DNA from: Candidatus Cloacimonas sp.
GTDB lineage: Bacteria; Cloacimonadota; Cloacimonadia; Cloacimonadales; Cloacimonadaceae
Reading direction: 5' to 3'
DNA length: 64,000 nt
NCBI GenBank assembly: GCA_035403355.1
Contig: DAONFA010000001.1
Coordinates: forward strand, 30,133 to 94,132
Shown: in pieces, positions 14,918 to 53,002 of the stretch
Position numbering within the stretch: position 1 is the first letter of the stretch
Layout: the number at the start of each line of letters is the position of its first letter
Notes under the pieces: generated by a model
What the model was told of the DNA's origin: nothing
What the model saw: only the letters and a program-made list of their open reading frames with translations
Database searches by the model: none
Translations under genes and position numbers: made by a program

Positions 14918-16267
14918 CTACATAATTTCAGCTATCACTGCATCTCTTTTGGTTTTGGCAAGAGAGTGCAGTTCATAGCCAAGTTCTTTATGTTTTTGTT
15001 GCAAAGCGGATAAAATATCAGACGCAGTATGCTTTTGCAGCATTTCCTGCCACAAAATTTTGTGTTCTTCTTTATTCCAATAGAGGTTTAAGAGCTTGGC
15101 AAAATTTTCCAGTTGCTGCATTTCCTCAAAAGAGAGGGCATCCGAGGCAAGGCATTGATAGGGTGGCTGGTTAAGCCATTTATAATTTAAGTCCAAAGCA
15201 ATTTTCTGCATCGGGGTATCGGGAAGAATTTTTAAAATGCCCAGTTGGACAGCATCCGGAAGAGTTGCACAGACCTCATTTAAGCCATTTATCACGGAAG
15301 CATAATTTTCTCCGGGCAGTCCGGCAAGCAAATCAGTATGGATGCGTATTTTAGTGCGTTTTTTCAGTTCCAGCAAAGTCCATTTTGCTTTTTCCCAATT
15401 TGATTTTCTGCCACAGTTCAAAGCCACTTCTGAGTTTATGGTCTGAATGCCGATTTCCAAACGGATTCTATTTTCCGGCGCTTTTTCCAGTATGGCAATA
15501 TCGTCTTCTGTCAGCAAATCAGGGTAGATTTCAAAATGGACATCGCCAAGGCAGTTATGTTCAATAAAGAAATTCCAGATATGATGTGCCATTTTTTTTT
15601 GGAGGTTAAAGCTGCGGTCAACGAATTTAATAGTTCTGGGTTGTAAAGAAATTAAGGTTTCCAGTTCCTTATTTAGGCATTGCAGATCTTCTTTATTTTC
15701 AGGATGATAACGAAGTTCAGAGCGTTTATCGGAAGCTGAAAGACAATAGACACAGGAAAACGGACAGCCCCTAAATGTTTCGTAATATAGCAATTTGCCT
15801 TTTAAAGTTTCTATATCGCTTTGTCTGTAAGGAAAAGGAATATCTTTCAAGGGAATATGTTCTGCCTGAAATAATTCTTTTTCATTTGCAGAAAAATCGT
15901 GTTCTGCCAAATAACGAAATTTACCTTCACCGGCACCTTGGACAATGTAAAGCCCTTTTCTTTTCAGGCAGGATAGGTTTTTTGCTTCAGGTCCGCCAAT
16001 TACAATAACTGCTTCCGGCAAAAGTTTGCTAACTTCAGGAATCAATTCCTGCAGATAAAGACGGTTCCAAATATAGGCAGAAAAACAAAGGACATCGGCA
16101 TTTTGGCTATAAATATCATATAGCACATCCAAAAGTCGGTCTTTTAATGTCCATTCTTTCAGAAAAACGGTATAAGGCAAATCTGCAATCATTTCCCGTA
16201 AGTAGTAAAGGGCAGGATTGGATTGACTCCAGCTGCTGTTTATGGCTGTTAGAAGAACTTTTTTCAT
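14918..16267 (-). CDS. B12-binding-domain radical SAM protein (DUF4080-type C-terminus likely)
   Basis: The CxxxCxxC motif is present (FRGCPFSCVYCLSA), and the N-terminal part is cobalamin-binding-like. I place the start at MKKVLLTAINS (ATG at 16267, with the RBS AAGGAAGGA upstream). The 43 upstream codons of the track ORF are only the translated 9-bp repeat array. Confidence 0.85.
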   Translation of the reverse strand: MKKVLLTAINSSWSQSNPALYYLREMIADLPYTVFLKEWTLKDRLLDVLYDIYSQNADVLCFSAYIWNRLYLQELIPEVSKLLPEAVIVIGGPEAKNLSCLKRKGLYIVQGAGEGKFRYLAEHDFSANEKELFQAEHIPLKDIPFPYRQSDIETLKGKLLYYETFRGCPFSCVYCLSASDKRSELRYHPENKEDLQCLNKELETLISLQPRTIKFVDRSFNLQKKMAHHIWNFFIEHNCLGDVHFEIYPDLLTEDDIAILEKAPENRIRLEIGIQTINSEVALNCGRKSNWEKAKWTLLELKKRTKIRIHTDLLAGLPGENYASVINGLNEVCATLPDAVQLGILKILPDTPMQKIALDLNYKWLNQPPYQCLASDALSFEEMQQLENFAKLLNLYWNKEEHKILWQEMLQKHTASDILSALQQKHKELGYELHSLAKTKRDAVIAEIM

Positions 16268-16285
16268 TTTTTCCTTCCTTGTAAA

Positions 16286-16402
16286 CACTGAGGACACAGA
16301 GGACACAGAGGACACTGAGGACACTGAAAACACAGAGAACACAGAGGACACTGAGAACACTGAGAACACAGAGAACACTGAGAACACTGAGGACACAGAG
16401 AA
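16286..16402. repeat. 13 tandem copies of a 9-bp unit CAC[AT]GA[GA][GA]A
   Basis: Read directly from the sequence. The array begins 19 nt upstream of the radical SAM start codon. Confidence 0.95.
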
Positions 16403-25246: not shown

Positions 25247-25365
25247 AATGGTGAACGGGATTGTTGGATCACGCAGATTACGCAGATTTTAGAAACACCT
25301 GTAAGACCAGACACAAAAAAACAGCTCACAGATTACACAGATTACACAGATTACACAGATTACAC
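25247..25365. repeat. About 120-bp composite element: AATGGTGAACGGGATT..GGATCA(CGCAGATTA)x2..ACACCTGTAAGACCA..CAGCT(CACAGATTA)x4
   Basis: A direct copy of the element at 29613-29746. It contains 9-bp tandem units at 25272-25289 and 25327-25365. Confidence 0.9.
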
Positions 25366-25538
25366 TGGATTATATATCCTTCCAAAAAAAAAGAATAGTT
25401 CGTTATAGTAAACGCCGGCATACCGAAAGAAGGCATATCTTTATTTAGTCCAAAATTCCCTCGTCACTCCTGCGTAAGGAGGAATCCAGAGATAATTAAT
25501 CTAATGGAAGTTACAATCCAGGATTTCATTTTTGGTAT

Positions 25539-28500
25539 TCATTTTAGCAAGGTTACTTTCTGCATATAGCTCTCTTTATCTACCAGCATTTTTATGAAAT
25601 AGATTCCACTTCCGCAATTGCTGTTATTTTTATCCTTACCTTCCCAGATAAGTTTATATCTGCCCTTATCTTTTTGTCCTAAGGTAAAAGTTTGGATTCT
25701 TTGACCGCGGTCATTGTATATTTCTATTTTTACTTCAGCTTTTTTACTTAGTTCATAACCAATAGTAGTAGAAGGATTGAAAGGATTAGGATAGATAGAA
25801 CGGATTCCTGTAATTAACTGATATGCCGGGGTACTATTGTGTGCTCCCTCAAAATAGATACATCTTGAGCCGTAATAACTATTAGAGGCATTATAATCTT
25901 GTATTTCCAGCCAGTAATAATACATCCCAGCTACATAAATATCTTTATCGGTGAATAAATACACTTGTTGTTGAGAAGTATTGGTAGCTTGAATTAAAGG
26001 ACTAATAACTGTTGCTTGAGAAAGGTCGTCAATGGTTGCACGAAGCAAATAATAACCGTTCACATTGGTTTCCGATTGAGTCGCCCACAGCAAATTTATA
26101 CCATACTGAGAATTGACAGAAGCATTAAAAGAAGATAATACAACGGGTAAAGTATTATCTTGCTGAGCAATAATAATTGGAATCTCCACTGTTCCCTTAG
26201 TTCCACTAAATGTTATAGAAAAACTTATCTTCTCCTCATCACCATAAATTATATGCCAGGCACTATTTTGATAATAAGCTCCATAATCGGAAGTTGTTTG
26301 GAAAGTAATAGTCCAATTGGAAATACTATTATCTAAAACAAAGTTATATTTGGAATAAGTTACATTGGGATTAGGCACAGGAGGGAAATCATCATTTATT
26401 ACACCTTTATCGGCATCTCCACCTGATACTGTAACAGAAATTCCTTGTTCAACTACAGGAATGTTATTAAGAAAATAAGGCATACGCAATTTGGCTACAT
26501 AGATGTTATCATATCCATTGCATGTTAAAGTGGTATTACCGAAAGTTGCATTACCGAAAAAATTTCCTACAATATAATTATTTCCATTAGTATCTACAGC
26601 AATGTCATATCCACCATCATTACTTGTCCCTCCGGCTTGGTTAATCCAAATCCAATTACCGTTACTATCCAACCTGGCAACAAAGATATCGTCCTTCCCT
26701 CTGCTGGTTAAAGTAGTATTACCAAAAGTAGCACTGCTGGAAAAATAACCGCTAATAAAACTGTTTCCGCTATCATCAATAGTAAGACCACTACAATAAT
26801 CACGAACTGTGCCTCCGGCTTGTTTTACCCAAAGCCAGTTACCGTTGCTATCCAGCTTGGCAACAAAGATATCCCAATAGTTACTGCTGGTCAAGGTAAT
26901 AGTGCCGAAGGTAGCGCTATGATAAAAACTACCTGCAACATAGCTGTTTCCATTGTTATCCACAGCAAATCCATCAGGGGTAGGCGTATTAGCTGAAGCT
27001 ACCCAAAGCCAGTTACCGTTACTATCCAGCTTAGCAACATAGCTGCCATCTCCTGTGTTACTTGTTACAGTGTAATTTCCAAATGTAGCACTTTCCATAA
27101 AATAACCACAAGCATAGCAGTTACCGTCATTATCTACTGCAACGCTATAACCGACATTATCAACAGGTCCTCCAGCTTTCTTTGCCCAGAGCCAGTTACC
27201 GTTATTGTCCATCTTAGCTATAAATATATCTTCATCTGCCTGTCCTGTCAGAGTAGTGCTTCCAAAAGTGATATTACTATCAAAACATCCTGTAACATAG
27301 CAGTTCTCATTGGAATCTACAGCAAGTCCATAACAAAAACCACCTTCGGCACCTCCTGCACTTTTTCCCCAGAGCCAGTTTCCGTTGCTGTCCATCTTAG
27401 CTATAAAAATATCCCCAGCTCCGTTACTGGTCAAGATTGTGGGGGGAGTAGTGCCAAAAGTAATACTACTCCCAAAATTACCGGTAATATAAATGTTACC
27501 GCTATTATCCATTACAATATCATTACAAGTATAATAACTTGTGCCTCCGGCTTGCTTTGCCCAAAGCCAGTTACCATTACTATTCATTTTAGCGACAAAG
27601 ATGTCAGATTGTCCGCTGTTTGTTAAGGTAGTAGAGCCCAAAGTTAAACTTTTGGTTATAAAATTACCCGATATATAACTATTTCCGTTATTATCAGTTA
27701 CAATGCATCGCGCGGTAACATTACTGCTCCCTTGTGCTTGTTTTGTCCATTGCCAATTACCGCTGCTATCAAGCATAGATATATAAAGGTCAGGATTTTG
27801 GTTATTGCTGTTATTTAAGATAGTATTCCCGAAATTAATATTTGTACTCAGAAAATAACCGGTAATAAAGCAATATCCATTAGTATCAATAGCAATGTCC
27901 ATACCTGTATCTTCAAGTGCTCCACCGGCTTTTTTTTCCCAGAGCCAATTACCGCTGCTATCCAGTTTAGCTATAAAAATGTCTTTATCTCCACTGCTGG
28001 TTAGAAGAGATGAATCAAAGTAAATGCTATTTTCATAAGAACCGGTAAGATAGCTATTGCCGCTCGGATCAATAGAAATTCCATTTGCTTCATCATAACC
28101 TGTCCCTCCGGTTTGTTTTGCCCAAAGCCAACTTCCGCTACTATTTAGTTTGGCAACAAATATATCTCCATTGCCGCTATTATTTAAAGTAATAGAACCA
28201 AAAGTAATGCTGCCACTATAGAAAATTCCTGTAATATAGCTATTACCACTGCTATCAATTGCGATGCTATTACTTACATCAGTTTTTGTTCCCCCAGCTT
28301 GAGTTGCCCAACTCCAGATCCCTGAACTGTTAAGCATAGCGACAAAAATATCACTTTCACCACTTTGGGTGTTATTTAATGTGATATTACCGAAGGTAAT
28401 GCTTGAACTTGAGAAATTCCCAGTTACAAAAATATTTTTATTACTATCAACTATAATTCCATAACCGGAATCAAAGTTATCTCCACCTATTTGTTTTGCC

Positions 28501-29147
28501 CAAAGCCAGTTACCACTACTATTCATTTTAGCGACAAAGATGTCACTATATCTATTGTTATATAGAGTAGTATTACCAAAAGTAATACTGCTACTAAAAT
28601 AATTCCCGGTGATATAACTATTTCCATCACTATCAATAGCAATGCCATAGCTGATATCTATGTCATTTCCTCCAGCTTGTTTTGCCCAAAGCCAATTGCC
28701 ATTGCTATCAAGTTTGGCAACAAAAATATCATAATATGCGGTACTCGTAAGAGTAGTAGAACCAAAAGTGGAAATACCTAAAAAACTTCCGGTAATATAA
28801 CTTATACCCGATGAAGTTACAGCAATACTATAGCCAAAATTAAGGGAATTTTCAGATGTTCCTGATGTTCCTCCGGCTTGTTTAATCCATACAAAATTAC
28901 CCTGGCTATCCATTTTAGCAACAAAGATATCCTGGTATCCTTTACTAATTAATCTTGTATTTCCAAATCTAATACTACCTTTAAAATTACCGGTTATATA
29001 GCTATTTCCGTATGAATCAAAAGCTACACTATAACCCTCATCTAAATTTTGTTCTCCTGCTTGAGTTGTCCATATCCATGGTTGATATTCACTAAAAAGC
29101 ATTATTGAAAAAAACAGTAAAACTGATAGTAGAATTGCCTTTTTCAT
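25539..29147 (-). CDS. Giant secreted beta-propeller-repeat (SBBP-like) protein with a T9SS C-terminal sorting domain
   Basis: 1202 aa with the signal peptide MKKAILLSVLLFFSIMLF. It has about 20 repeats of the form GxxxDxGxxIAxDSSGNSYITGxFxSSxTFGxTTLTxxGxxDIFVAKLDSNGNWLWAKQAGG. The C-terminus (IYPNPFNPSTTIGYEL..IEIYNDRGQRI..SGIYFIKM) fits the T9SS CTD pattern. Confidence 0.85.
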   Translation of the reverse strand: MKKAILLSVLLFFSIMLFSEYQPWIWTTQAGEQNLDEGYSVAFDSYGNSYITGNFKGSIRFGNTRLISKGYQDIFVAKMDSQGNFVWIKQAGGTSGTSENSLNFGYSIAVTSSGISYITGSFLGISTFGSTTLTSTAYYDIFVAKLDSNGNWLWAKQAGGNDIDISYGIAIDSDGNSYITGNYFSSSITFGNTTLYNNRYSDIFVAKMNSSGNWLWAKQIGGDNFDSGYGIIVDSNKNIFVTGNFSSSSITFGNITLNNTQSGESDIFVAMLNSSGIWSWATQAGGTKTDVSNSIAIDSSGNSYITGIFYSGSITFGSITLNNSGNGDIFVAKLNSSGSWLWAKQTGGTGYDEANGISIDPSGNSYLTGSYENSIYFDSSLLTSSGDKDIFIAKLDSSGNWLWEKKAGGALEDTGMDIAIDTNGYCFITGYFLSTNINFGNTILNNSNNQNPDLYISMLDSSGNWQWTKQAQGSSNVTARCIVTDNNGNSYISGNFITKSLTLGSTTLTNSGQSDIFVAKMNSNGNWLWAKQAGGTSYYTCNDIVMDNSGNIYITGNFGSSITFGTTPPTILTSNGAGDIFIAKMDSNGNWLWGKSAGGAEGGFCYGLAVDSNENCYVTGCFDSNITFGSTTLTGQADEDIFIAKMDNNGNWLWAKKAGGPVDNVGYSVAVDNDGNCYACGYFMESATFGNYTVTSNTGDGSYVAKLDSNGNWLWVASANTPTPDGFAVDNNGNSYVAGSFYHSATFGTITLTSSNYWDIFVAKLDSNGNWLWVKQAGGTVRDYCSGLTIDDSGNSFISGYFSSSATFGNTTLTSRGKDDIFVARLDSNGNWIWINQAGGTSNDGGYDIAVDTNGNNYIVGNFFGNATFGNTTLTCNGYDNIYVAKLRMPYFLNNIPVVEQGISVTVSGGDADKGVINDDFPPVPNPNVTYSKYNFVLDNSISNWTITFQTTSDYGAYYQNSAWHIIYGDEEKISFSITFSGTKGTVEIPIIIAQQDNTLPVVLSSFNASVNSQYGINLLWATQSETNVNGYYLLRATIDDLSQATVISPLIQATNTSQQQVYLFTDKDIYVAGMYYYWLEIQDYNASNSYYGSRCIYFEGAHNSTPAYQLITGIRSIYPNPFNPSTTIGYELSKKAEVKIEIYNDRGQRIQTFTLGQKDKGRYKLIWEGKDKNNSNCGSGIYFIKMLVDKESYMQKVTLLK

Positions 29148-29612
29148 CTTTTCCTCCTTGCCTTAATATTTCTTCATTGGGTTCATAGTTTTCATAATAG
29201 TAAGAACTCCTCTTTCTATTATAGTTTGGACAAAACAAAAAAATTTGTCTCTACGCTATCAGCTATTTACATAGCAAGTTTCCACATATTCAGGAATTAT
29301 ACCTAATTTAAAATACTCTACAAGATTTCCTTTTTACAAATTGTGGATTTATGTCAAGCACGATTATTCAAAAAATATATAAATCAGAATATCAAGCTTC
29401 AGGTAACAAGGGAATAATATGTTGTAATGCATTGTGATGTAATAAAGTTCTGCTTTAGAATGGTGGAATTTATTCAACACCCCAACCGCTATAATCTATC
29501 AATTTTGATATGTGAGCTGAAAGTAACTTCATATAAGAAAGATGGTTGCCAAAGTAAAATTTTTTTCTAAGAGATAAAATGCCTATTTCCTTGTCTTTCC
29601 TGAAAAAGCAGG

Positions 29613-29746
29613 AATGGTGAACGGGATTTTTGGATCACGCAGATTACGCAGATTTTATAAACACCTGTAAGACCAAACACAAAAAAAACAGCTCACAGAT
29701 TACACAGATTTCACAGATTAAACAGATTACACAGATTTCACAGATA
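29613..29746. repeat. Second direct copy of the ~120-bp composite 9-mer element
   Basis: AATGGTGAACGGGATTTTTGGATCACGCAGATTACGCAGATTTTATAAACACCTGTAAGACCAAACAC..CAGCTCACAGATTACACAGATTTCACAGATTAAACAGATTACACAGATTTCACAGATA. Confidence 0.9.
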
Positions 29747-29792
29747 TAGTATGGACACACTGATTTAGGATGGATATAGATTTCACGGAATT

Positions 29793-29824
29793 AAACAGAT
29801 AAACTCCTATTTTTATATCTGTTT
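29793..29824 (-). terminator. Possible stem-loop downstream of the two-gene cassette
   Basis: AAACAGATA-n14-TATCTGTTT forms a 9-bp stem about 80 nt after the stop at 29902. No clear T-run follows. Confidence 0.3.
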
Positions 29825-29901
29825 GTTGGCTTTACTTTTATAAGGATGCTTGCATAAACCGATCGGTGAAGCTGCATTTTTTTCTTAGAAGTGAATAGAT
29901 T

Positions 29902-30696
29902 TTAGTAATTAGCAGCTTTTAATTTATTTATGCTATCATTGGAGTATCTATTACTCCACAGAATATATTCAGTATCTTTGTTTTGCAATGCTTCCAGATA
30001 TTCCGGCTTAATTTCTCGGTCAGTATCATTAATTATTGCCAAGCCGATAACCATTTTACTTGAAAGAAGTTCACGCATCTGTTTAATATCGCTCCAAGTA
30101 AAAAGAAAGTGGGGCAAGTTTAACTTATTTACAGTATTAAAAGCTTTTATCACAATCTCTGTATTTCTAAAGGCAATTTGAAAATCAAAGGTAAATTCAA
30201 GACCTGTGCTTCCCTTGGAAATAAAATTGGGGGTATAAATAATATCCAGTTCTTTCAAGTAAGCTTGCACATCTTCTTTAAATACTGATTCTACTGTTTG
30301 TTTGGATAGCACATAAAGGTCATTGATTTCTGAAATTGCTGATAAGAGATTCAGTTTTTTCTGGGGAAAGTTCTTTTCATCAGTTTCTACAGTTAATTCG
30401 GAATCTTCAGATAAAACTACACCATAATTTAACAAAATTCTCTCTAACATTTCTTTCCGCTTAGCAGAGCGAGAAATAGAAACACCGCTTAATTCAAGAT
30501 TATGAATTGTTTCTCCATCATCAGATAAAATTACTTTCCCTTTCTCTTTTTTAGCATATATCTCTATAGAATCGTTAAATAAACCCAGAAAAGGAGTAGT
30601 TATTTTTGTCCAGGTGGTAACAGCATCCAAAGTAATAGTAGTTTTCTGTCTTAAGAAGTTATAAAAATCATCTACCAACGCAGTTATCTGATTCAT
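29902..30696 (-). CDS. Hypothetical protein, possibly DUF1828 + DUF1829 architecture (from memory only)
   Basis: 264 aa. The N-terminal part reads ITTPFLGLFNDSIEIYAKK..VILSDDGETIHNL. The C-terminal part reads FISKGSTGLEFTFDFQIAFRNTEIVIKAFN. Its start overlaps the upstream gene's stop (ATGA at 30693-30696). Confidence 0.6.
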   Translation of the reverse strand: MNQITALVDDFYNFLRQKTTITLDAVTTWTKITTPFLGLFNDSIEIYAKKEKGKVILSDDGETIHNLELSGVSISRSAKRKEMLERILLNYGVVLSEDSELTVETDEKNFPQKKLNLLSAISEINDLYVLSKQTVESVFKEDVQAYLKELDIIYTPNFISKGSTGLEFTFDFQIAFRNTEIVIKAFNTVNKLNLPHFLFTWSDIKQMRELLSSKMVIGLAIINDTDREIKPEYLEALQNKDTEYILWSNRYSNDSINKLKAANY

Positions 30697-31220
30697 AAAA
30701 ACACCTCATCTTGCATAGTTATCTTTAACTGAGATTGGAGGTTAACTAATTTAGCAACAGCTAAAATTGCTTCCGCTATGTCAGCAGTGGATTGGATATT
30801 TTTAATAGGGAAAACATCTTTTGACAAGGGGATAGCCCAATTTAAGTCATAATCTTGGACAAAATAATGAATATGCGGAATATTAACTCCAAGATATTGA
30901 CCCATATACGGTAAGAAATGCTTCGGAACATTTTCAGTTGCCTGTTCCGGATTCTTATGAGTTCCGCAATAATCAATCCGTAATAAAGGTAATTGACCAT
31001 CTGTATTCTGAAAATGAAGAGTAAGCTTTATAATGTGTTTTTTACTGCGAGTTATTTCCAGAAAAAACTCATATTCTGCATTAGGTATAGAAATCATATT
31101 AATTCTTTCTTTCAGGTAATTAGTCAAAGTAAAAGAATAAGTATCCATCATTACTTTACCATCAAAAGCTTTTTTCTCAATTGCGATCAACTGATCAGCA
31201 AATTCCTTTGTAATTATCAT
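30693..31220 (-). CDS. Hypothetical protein with a conserved-looking His motif pair (GTHKNP ... PHIHYF)
   Basis: 175 aa with no signal peptide or TM segment. The RBS GGAG lies upstream of the ATG at 31220. It is translationally coupled to the 264-aa gene. Confidence 0.6.
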   Translation of the reverse strand: MIITKEFADQLIAIEKKAFDGKVMMDTYSFTLTNYLKERINMISIPNAEYEFFLEITRSKKHIIKLTLHFQNTDGQLPLLRIDYCGTHKNPEQATENVPKHFLPYMGQYLGVNIPHIHYFVQDYDLNWAIPLSKDVFPIKNIQSTADIAEAILAVAKLVNLQSQLKITMQDEVFL

Positions 31221-31334
31221 AAAACTCCTGATGCTCTGTCTTGATTAAATCTCATTATAGTCAAGAGAGCATAACTCTACAAATTCCACAGTATATATTT
31301 GCGCAAGGGTGTCAATAAATATTTCGCATTTTTC

Positions 31335-31400
31335 CGGGGTTTATGTTGACGGGGACATCAACATTACGGGGGTTTTTGTTGACGGGGGTATCAACCTAAC
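31335..31400. repeat. Two tandem 33-bp units with an A-variant hairpin (GTTGAC-GGGG-(A/T)-ATCAAC)
   Basis: GGGGTTTATGTTGACGGGGACATCAACATTAC / GGGGGTTTTTGTTGACGGGGGTATCAACCTAAC. The second unit overlaps the nnr stop codon (31391-31393). Confidence 0.8.
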
Positions 31401-32941
31401 GGAAAAGGCATTGGTTCTTCGTTAAGAGAAATAAACAGGTTTTCTATTATATCCGTAGGCAGGATTGAAGGTGCGTAGCGTTTTTTGGCAAGTTCTTCCG
31501 CTGTTCTACCCATAATGTAAGAAGCATTGATAGCTGCCTCTCCAAGTTCCATTCTTTGTCCGCAAAAGGAACCGATAATTCCGGCTAAAACATCTCCGCT
31601 ACCGCCTGTGGCAAGTCCATCATTTCCTCTGGTATTGATAAACATTCTTTTTTCGTCGCAAAAGATAGTAGTATCACTTTTCAGCAGGACTTTTGCCCCG
31701 GTCTTTTTTACATAATTTTCCAAAGCGGCAGAGGTATCTTCATAGAGCTGATCCAGAGTGATATTTGCCAGAGCACAGAATTCTCCAAAATGAGGAGTGA
31801 GCAGGATATTAGGTTTTTTCAGATATTGTTGCAGAGCGGGGTCTTTTGCAATTAACCGTAAAGCATCAGCATCAACAACGGTAGGCACTGTAGAAGTTCG
31901 CAAGACAAATTCCAGCATATAGTTAGCATAAGTATCAAGCCCCAAACCGGGACCTATTATAACGCTATCTGCCTTTTTAAATAGATCGGAGAATAATTTC
32001 AAGTCCGGAGTTAGTGTTTTTCCTACTCTGGGTATTCCTACAAAGAGATATTCCGAAGGGTTAGCATTATAGAAATAGGCATTTTCTTCACGACTTACCA
32101 AATAAACTAAGCCGGCTCCTGCTCTCAAAGCAGCTTTAGCGGTCATAGATATTGCCCCCAAATATCCCAAATGGCCACCTATAGCTAAAACCCTGCCGTA
32201 ATCATTTTTAGTAGCATTAAAACTGCGTTCGGGTAATTTGAAGTTGGCATTATCTATCAAAATGGCAGGGGTGAAAAAGGCATCGTTATAGCTATCGGGA
32301 ATGCCAATAGGGATAGTTACTATTTTTCCGCTCTTATATTTTCCATATTGCAGGAATAATCCGGTTTTGAACGAATGCAAAGTTAAGGTTAAATTTGCCC
32401 GGAAGGCATCTTCACCATCTCCGTTGGCTCCATTTAAGCCGGAAGGGATGTCTATAGCCACTTTGAAGGCAGCAGTATCCTCAACGCTTTCAAATATTTT
32501 TTTCAGAGTAGCCGGTAATTTACCCTTAAAGCCCGTTCCGAAGACAGCATCAATAATCATCGTTACCCCTGGTAAATTTTCAATTACATCCAGGTTGTCT
32601 AAGTTCTTATTCAAATCATAAGAAGGGATTTTAAGTGCTTTGCAGAGTTCAAAATTGTGTTTGCTTTCTGCTGTCATAGTGCCATTATGGACTTTTAAGA
32701 GGAACACACTTTTCGCGTAGTTATGCAACCAGCGGGCAAGGACAAAGCCATCTCCGCTGTTATTTCCTGTGCCGTGTAAAATGATGATAATTCCGTCTGT
32801 TTCTTCCGGATAGTTATTAATAAGATAATCGGCGCAGCCCCTGCCGGCATTTTCCATCAGCAAGGCAGCTGGAATGCCGAAGCAATTGATGGTATTGTCA
32901 TCCAGGGTTTTCATTTGAGAGGGAGTAAAAACATAAGCCAT
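31391..32941 (-). CDS. nnr: Bifunctional NAD(P)H-hydrate repair enzyme (epimerase + ADP-dependent dehydratase)
   Basis: 516 aa. The N-terminal YjeF-N part has GTGNNSGDG. The C-terminal carbohydrate-kinase-like part has LTPHFGEF and GLATGGSGDVLAG. Confidence 0.9.
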   Translation of the reverse strand: MAYVFTPSQMKTLDDNTINCFGIPAALLMENAGRGCADYLINNYPEETDGIIIILHGTGNNSGDGFVLARWLHNYAKSVFLLKVHNGTMTAESKHNFELCKALKIPSYDLNKNLDNLDVIENLPGVTMIIDAVFGTGFKGKLPATLKKIFESVEDTAAFKVAIDIPSGLNGANGDGEDAFRANLTLTLHSFKTGLFLQYGKYKSGKIVTIPIGIPDSYNDAFFTPAILIDNANFKLPERSFNATKNDYGRVLAIGGHLGYLGAISMTAKAALRAGAGLVYLVSREENAYFYNANPSEYLFVGIPRVGKTLTPDLKLFSDLFKKADSVIIGPGLGLDTYANYMLEFVLRTSTVPTVVDADALRLIAKDPALQQYLKKPNILLTPHFGEFCALANITLDQLYEDTSAALENYVKKTGAKVLLKSDTTIFCDEKRMFINTRGNDGLATGGSGDVLAGIIGSFCGQRMELGEAAINASYIMGRTAEELAKKRYAPSILPTDIIENLFISLNEEPMPFPLG

Positions 32942-47210: not shown

Positions 47211-47278
47211 CTCACAAATATCACAGATTACACAAATAAAAATAATTGTTTCCCGCAGATTACACAGATTTCGCAGCC
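47211..47278. repeat. Degenerate copies of the CACAGATTA/CGCAGATTA 9-mer family
   Basis: CTCACAAATATCACAGATTACACAAATA ... CCGCAGATTACACAGATTTCGCAGCC. Confidence 0.8.
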
Positions 47279-52957: not shown

Positions 52958-53002
52958 CGCAGATTACGCAGATTACGCAGATTACGCAGATTACGCAGAT
53001 TT
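52958..53002. repeat. 5 tandem copies of the 9-bp unit CGCAGATTA
   Basis: Units start at 52958, 52967, 52976, 52985 and 52994. The array lies about 40 nt upstream of the putative eno -35. Confidence 0.95.

Follow-up and report, generated by a model that had tools for sequence, protein, structure and literature searches.

The window analysed here is a 64,000-nucleotide stretch of a 293-kb Cloacimonadota metagenome contig (Candidatus Cloacimonas sp., contig DAONFA010000001.1), and it carries two minus-strand genes, called A and B below, which lie between nnr and a gene encoding a type IX secretion system (T9SS) surface protein. All coordinates are window positions. Gene A (30693..31220, minus strand, open reading frame (ORF) call) encodes a small cytosolic beta-rich protein of 175 amino acids (aa), and gene B (29902..30696, minus strand) encodes a protein of 264 aa. 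The two genes share the tetranucleotide ATGA at 30693..30696 on the minus strand, in which the B start codon (30696-30694) and the A stop codon (30695-30693) overlap. Both ORFs were confirmed in the sequence, in agreement with the original prediction, made from the DNA letters, that the overlap makes them one unit. Two Shine-Dalgarno-like motifs of presumed function accompany the genes on the minus strand, GAGGTG at 30702..30707, located 5 nucleotides (nt) upstream of the B ATG within the 3' end of A, and AGGAG at 31225..31229, located 4 nt upstream of the A ATG.

Protein A belongs to the Pfam family DUF6978 (PF22398), with a score of 76 bits (E value 4.4e-21) for a gathering cut-off of 29.6. 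Protein B is composed of a DUF1828 domain (residues 34-124; 92.8 bits, 1.7e-26) followed by a DUF1829 domain (residues 162-250; 78.5 bits, 5.5e-22), the gathering cut-offs of these two families being about 22 bits. DUF6978 for the 175-aa product and the DUF1828 plus DUF1829 architecture, in this N-to-C order, for the 264-aa product had been proposed in the original prediction, and correctly so, all three domains scoring above threshold. DUF1829 (PF08862) is placed in the Pfam clan CL0236 PDDEXK (Table S5, PMC13092281). Among the PADLOC profiles, A matched PDC-M24A (PDLC04537; E 6e-49, 164 bits) and B matched PDC-M24B (PDLC04539; E 4.1e-95, 316 bits), both over their full length. The genes of the window are adjacent, on the same strand and ordered A>>B, which corresponds to the PDC-M24 cassette order FAM_00129>>FAM_00065. 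B also matched phrog_5059 (4.5e-67), a phage protein family of unknown function, and NCBIfam gave no match for A or B. No known toxin or antitoxin family and no antitoxin DNA-binding domain (helix-turn-helix (HTH), ribbon-helix-helix (RHH) or AbrB) was found in either protein using Pfam, NCBIfam and PDB sequences.

PDC-M24 is cassette CAS_00098 (FAM_00129>>FAM_00065, count 153) of Payne, Hughes, Fineran and Jackson (2024, bioRxiv 10.1101/2024.01.29.577857), who predicted it by "guilt-by-embedding", that is, from genes found inside BREX, DISARM or Type I restriction-modification (R-M) systems. It is one among 145 predicted candidates and is outside the seven systems tested in that study. Independently of the cassette, an E. 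coli DUF1828/DUF1829 protein (WP_000968518.1) is listed as a "predicted novel defense gene" by DefensePredictor with a log-odds of 5.6; it appears only in Tables S5 and S10 and is absent from Tables S6 and S7 of cloned and tested units (PMC13092281). The description of the pair as an undescribed module therefore has to be abandoned, and so does the term orphan, since at least 904 homologues were counted for B and at least 193 representative clusters for A. The cassette is a Cloacimonadota, non-embedded member of a candidate system already present in PADLOC, and the annotation of the window can be changed from "hypothetical proteins" to "PDC-M24-type candidate defence pair".

The listed B homologues are about 63-65% identical to the window protein even in other phyla. 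Co-occurrence of the two genes, which had been proposed as a check, was examined in 70 loci found through B, with one genome per species, in which A-type ORFs were detected by a profile of A. These loci belong to Bacteroidota, Cloacimonadota, Brocadiaceae, Nitrospirota, Ignavibacteriota, Chlorobiales, Heliophilum, one alphaproteobacterium and the archaeon Methanimicrococcus hongohii. In 65 of the 70 loci, all from other genomes, B was immediately preceded by an A-type gene, which bears out the co-occurrence; among the five remaining loci, one had no room upstream and two had a broken or truncated B. The ATGA junction was found in 43 of 45 fully intact pairs, and a search begun from A homologues recovered the same pairing. 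More distant pairs with the same DUF6978 and DUF1828/DUF1829 composition, at about 25-37% identity, occur in Firmicutes prophages and satellites (Lj965, phiSP119-3, MissF, Javan357, phage 37 and TMW 1.1365 P3), and an A-like ORF was present just upstream of B in 18 of 26 IMG/VR viral contigs carrying B. When the loci were compared with one another (990 comparisons), the mean identity was 44.6% for A and 63.0% for B, B being the more conserved protein in 99.9% of the comparisons, with correlated A and B identities (rho 0.46). A evolves faster than B.

In the complete chromosome of Methanimicrococcus hongohii Hf6 (L029, 2073741-2094514), the pair includes a B protein 62% identical to that of the window, and this archaeal copy implies transfer across domains. 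Gene A of this strain is frameshifted at a poly-A tract. Elsewhere, a Cloacimonadaceae B protein 79% identical to the window B is preceded by a different gene, encoding 272 or 299 aa (L071:195-1013, L072:3-902) and showing weak Radical_SAM and DUF5131 matches. An alternative cassette for the family of B, FAM_01408>>FAM_00065, was also reported by the study that defined PDC-M24 (bioRxiv 10.1101/2024.01.29.577857).

The genomic settings of the relatives were examined in 69 loci with a reach of 10 kb, the Hsd proteins annotated in two of them serving as seeds for local profile searches. Type I R-M genes were found within 10 kb of the pair in 28 loci, and in 21 of the 69 the pair was inside the Type I R-M operon, with such genes on either side in the same orientation, the usual order being hsdM-A-B-hsdS-(x)-hsdR and the gaps measuring 0-12 nt. 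The survey thus reproduces the embedding that defines PDC-M24, whose hidden Markov models are strongly matched by the window pair with the gene order and strand arrangement of the candidate. In Telluribacter, the pair stands beside Kiwa (KwaA, KwaB) within a Type I R-M operon, and in a Flavobacteriales genome it is found among GmrSD, an MmeI-like enzyme, HipA and a Type I R-M system. Prophages Lj965 and phiSP119-3 carry it between the integrase and the repressor, in the lysogeny module, and in Lj965 it adjoins a superinfection-exclusion gene. Given these relatives in Type I R-M operons, defence islands and prophage lysogeny modules, the earlier view of the pair as a cassette of the defence, abortive-infection or toxin-antitoxin kind is the best reading. 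The Telluribacter loci (L083/L084:8754-16951) contain, in order, an N6_Mtase fragment, A-B, hsdS, KwaA-KwaB and hsdR, so that two unrelated cassettes are nested in one operon.

At the window locus, the pair has a GC content of 0.320, compared with 0.394 for the whole window, and falls in the lowest 2.2% of segments of its size. It is part of a low-GC segment (29148..31390, no strand) comprising the pair and a non-coding gap (0.314), between nnr (0.413) and the surface-protein gene. The pair is present on 9 of 9 contigs having an identical nnr protein. In other Cloacimonadota genomes it occupies other sites, by thiamine genes and rpsU or by ftsZ, and copies are also found on some plasmids. Nucleotide homology between genomes (80-90%) ends about 10-90 nt beyond the two ORFs, and therefore the mobile unit is a minimal cassette of 1.3-1.4 kb without its own integrase; neither terminal repeats nor target duplications were seen at its edges. 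The pair was acquired horizontally. The Cloacimonadaceae B that is 79% identical to the window B and follows a different gene lies at the ftsZ-adjacent site, and at this site in a sister genome A is decayed or truncated and B is split (L089:1720-2914).

Protein A has a conserved core at residues 61-135, and residues 21-50 and 141-175 are variable. Its conserved residues are K16, F52, K61, R81, D83, H88, N90, P91, P99, G107, H116, H118, W128, A129 and P131; seven of them, R81, D83, H88, N90, P91, H116 and H118, were conserved in at least 90% of 60 diverse homologues. K16, K61, R81, D83, H88, N90, H116 and H118 make up its conserved polar cluster. The paired histidine motif announced for this protein does exist, LRIDYCGTHKNP and NIPHIHYF both being present, but the two parts are separated by 21 residues and not by about 25. 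An AlphaFold2 model obtained with a diverse 60-sequence alignment reached a predicted local distance difference test (pLDDT) value of 95.9 and a predicted template-modelling (pTM) score of 0.91, and predicts a beta-meander sheet with three helices. Foldseek with this model gave no match with E <= 0.001 in PDB (best E 0.18, template-modelling (TM) score <= 0.3) or in BFVD, and PDB sequences contained no significant match to A, whether the single protein or the family profile was used. A HEPN reading, suggested by the resemblance of R81-x6-H88 to Rx4-6H, was rejected, A being beta-rich and not helical.

Broken copies of gene A occur in about 15 of 65 loci, 13 of which retain an intact B. B itself is disrupted in 3-4 of 70 loci, a comparison which is biased, the loci having been found through B. 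One poly-A tract, which encodes a conserved Lys-Lys (about nt 173-178 of A), accounts for five or six of the lesions in A, independent indels of 1-2 nt in genomes of different phyla: -1 in L012, L027 and L029, -2 in L020, +1 in L044, and possibly a lesion in L034. In the window, the homologous site is an A6 tract (31038..31043, minus strand), in frame and covering codons K60-K61. Since most of the assemblies are SPAdes or MEGAHIT products, short-read type as judged from contig naming, real mutation is likelier than homopolymer error. The tract is read as a mutational hot spot because intact A genes carry tracts of A3 to A9 at this site, often interrupted. Regulated phase variation, with the tract acting as an on-off switch, is possible. 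A programmed frameshift was considered and rejected, since the shifts are not uniform (-1, -2, +1) and the tract is interrupted in many intact genes. The recurrent loss of A suggests that this gene is costly. It is also dispensable in the presence of B, and A is therefore not an essential antidote to B.

In protein B, the residues that are invariant across 41 diverse members are mostly found in DUF1828 (P35, D42, Y47, D59, D60, R80 and G92, window ~30421-30594) and not at the putative nuclease motif; DUF1828 from this pattern may be a functionally critical domain, either catalytic or ligand-binding. The original prediction had proposed a PD-(D/E)xK-like nuclease core for the C-terminal part of B. 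The candidate assignment as a nuclease is founded on the Pfam clan placement of DUF1829, with which the proposal agrees, and on weak structural hints: in a model of poor quality, the order of secondary-structure elements appears to fit the alpha-beta-beta-...-alpha-beta nuclease core. E141, D171, E180 and K184 are invariant within the B subfamily of the window, and across the 41 diverse members E141, D142 and D171 are conserved in at least 90%. Searches of PDB sequences with B, as a single protein or as a family profile, returned nothing significant.

Taken together, we infer that the pair is a stand-alone, horizontally acquired anti-phage system of the PDC-M24 type, in which B would be a nuclease-clan effector partnered by the fast-evolving A, the latter serving as sensor, regulator or second enzyme, a reading to which we give a probability of about 0.55. 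A and B would be made from one transcript, the ATGA overlap keeping their amounts linked, and the proteins would act as a pair. B, in which DUF1828 with its invariant D42, D59, D60 and R80 is combined with a C-terminal domain of the PD-(D/E)xK clan, would be the likely nucleic-acid-targeting effector. A would probably be a sensor, a regulator or a second enzymatic activity, in which variable N- and C-terminal segments surround an R-D-H-N-H-H core. Upon infection, the pair might cut nucleic acid, whereby the phage would be stopped or the infected cell aborted. A more specific version can be offered tentatively, in which PDC-M24 is a genuine defence system, DUF6978 with its R-D-H-N-H-H site is a new sensing or enzymatic activity controlling the DUF1828/PD-(D/E)xK-clan partner, and the poly-A frameshifts are a cost-limiting switch.

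A number of observations weigh against an anti-phage nuclease system. The pair of the window is not embedded and stands alone among housekeeping genes (nnr, a sensor kinase and a signal peptidase), without homologues of hsdM, hsdS or hsdR within the window, and in about 37 of the 69 loci the neighbours are mostly housekeeping genes and defence genes are occasional. PDC-M24 is itself a prediction, and the literature searched contained no experiment on any of its members, no main-text mention of it and no link between DUF6978 and defence, DUF6978 being mentioned only incidentally in two S. aureus studies. No function could be recognised for A from sequence or structure searches. As for B, its model was built from a shallow alignment of 23 sequences and is poor (pLDDT 57). 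Its top Foldseek matches were Cap4, VC1899/Card1, Can2 and MspJI, in which a sensor domain is fused to a PD-(D/E)xK nuclease; like them, B carries its PD-(D/E)xK-clan domain at the C-terminus, behind an N-terminal domain that is not a nuclease, but it is devoid of SAVED, CARF and SRA domains, no cyclic-nucleotide synthase is found nearby, and the matches are not significant (E >= 0.016, TM score <= 0.27). Alignment with hhalign of the B C-terminal domain to YhcG-type PD-(D/E)xK proteins from the loci gave no match either. The candidate catalytic spacing, E-x3-K, is non-canonical, and the motif is variable: K184 is replaced across the 41 diverse members (K/Q/R/N/S) and E180 is lost in the Lactobacillus group, so that, of the nuclease proposal, the conservation of E180 and K184 holds only for the subfamily of the window.

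Some features of the pair would suit a module of the toxin-antitoxin or addiction kind, which would stabilise mobile DNA without a direct anti-phage role, one protein poisoning the cell and the other neutralising it. The two genes are small, overlapping and co-directional, they move as a 1.3-1.4 kb cassette through prophages, some plasmids and varied chromosomal sites, and the frequent inactivation of A beside an intact B is the pattern expected for a toxin A and an antidote B. We nevertheless hold this explanation to be unlikely, because the searches found neither a toxin or antitoxin family match nor an HTH, RHH or AbrB domain, because an antidote that is the larger and more conserved partner and belongs to a nuclease clan would be unusual, and because the frequent embedding in R-M operons points to defence, although many toxin-antitoxin systems defend too and the two readings overlap. 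That same embedding could indicate a PrrC-like accessory or guard of Type I R-M, which would work via the Hsd proteins, either sensing that phage anti-restriction proteins inhibit the R-M complex or modulating restriction. In 21 of 69 loci, about 30% of those surveyed, the pair occupies the position between hsdM and hsdS in the same orientation, often with gaps of 0-12 nt, and PrrC was found almost only at this position (bioRxiv 10.1101/2024.01.29.577857). A guard role is nonetheless improbable: the domains of A and B are unrelated to those of PrrC-type systems, with no ABC-ATPase or anticodon-nuclease domain detected by Pfam, Type I R-M genes are missing within 10 kb of the pair in the window and at most other loci, the prophage copies are in lysogeny modules without hsd genes, and many unrelated stand-alone systems, such as Kiwa, are embedded likewise.

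A function for the phage or mobile element other than host defence, for instance lysogeny control, anti-defence or a nuclease aiding the spread of the cassette, would be consistent with the presence of the pair in temperate phages, satellites and IMG/VR contigs, with the match of B to phrog_5059 and with a cassette that moves without its own integrase. Against it, the prophage site is the lysogeny-expressed integrase-repressor region by a superinfection-exclusion gene, which is usual for prophage-borne defence, the majority of copies lie on chromosomes away from any phage genes, and the edges of the cassette showed no terminal repeats or target duplications; we consider such a function to have a low probability. 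Least plausible of all is a conserved host housekeeping function. It would explain the neighbours of the pair in the window and its presence on all nine contigs with an identical nnr, but the pair is scattered over the phyla, distant lineages showing ~63% identity, its sites differ in related genomes, and it is low in GC, frequently pseudogenised and without NCBIfam match. Its distribution, GC content and frequent decay effectively exclude this explanation.

DS-6/HipAD, a system validated in defence, offers a comparison with the proposed anti-phage pair (PMC13092281). It likewise consists of two genes, the second encoding a protein with a DUF1829-like C-terminal domain, and there the first gene provides the active effector and the second its partner, for which binding to the effector and to DNA is predicted. 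It differs from the A/B pair in that its first gene encodes a HipA-like kinase and not a DUF6978 protein, and in that the N-terminal domain of the partner is DUF3037 and not DUF1828; moreover, its DUF1829 assignment is weak, with an HHpred probability of 0.78 only. Should PDC-M24 be confirmed as a defence system, it would add to immunity a widespread minimal module of two genes and 1.3 kb, ranging over Bacteroidota, Cloacimonadota, anammox bacteria, Firmicutes prophages and at least one archaeon. Neither protein has a characterised relative, and A is without a structural match in PDB. For experimenters, the survey provides residues for mutation, natural A-knockout variants and two typical settings, embedded in Type I R-M operons or stand-alone.

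Upstream of A, a perfect TATAAT hexamer is present at 31254..31259 on the minus strand, 34 nt from the A ATG and without a canonical -35 element at 16-18 nt. Two other promoter-like hexamers were found, TTGACA (31310-31315) and TTGACT (31259-31264). Since TTGACT overlaps TATAAT and TTGACA is 50 nt away from it, these hexamers form no canonical -35/-10 pair, and a promoter scan of the region gave 11 promoter-like sites for 10.6 expected from shuffled sequences, which is chance level. The promoter that had been claimed for the pair is thus not demonstrated. Scans of positions 29000-31500 gave no Rfam, tRNA or terminator match. A 33-nt tandem duplication at 31336-31402 extends across the stop codon of nnr (31391) and over the sequence upstream of A. 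It contains a hairpin, ATGTTGA-CGGGGACA-TCAACAT, which is unique in the window and may serve as terminator of nnr or in regulation.

Two other ORFs of the window, neither of them adjacent to the pair, matched PADLOC candidates. One encodes 492 aa (14921-16396, minus strand) and matched PDC-M51A (7.9e-27); the other matched PDC-S01 very strongly (9e-153).

The pair had been described as lying in a repeat-bounded gap. This does not apply to the pair, as the dispersed repeats of the 754-bp gap bound the neighbouring 1202-aa T9SS/SBBP surface-protein gene (25539-29147), which is flanked by direct copies of a block of about 150 bp (25272-25370 and 29638-29746). The strain contig L079 (3300-3450), with the same nnr and the same A/B, lacks the surface-protein gene and retains the block just once, and the gene is therefore an indel bounded by repeats. 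The block contains a 9-nt tandem array (CACAGATTA / CGCAGATTA) that occurs twice more in the window, at 47213-47270 and 52958-53001, all copies being on the plus strand, and which seems to represent a family of repeats dispersed between the genes of this genome.

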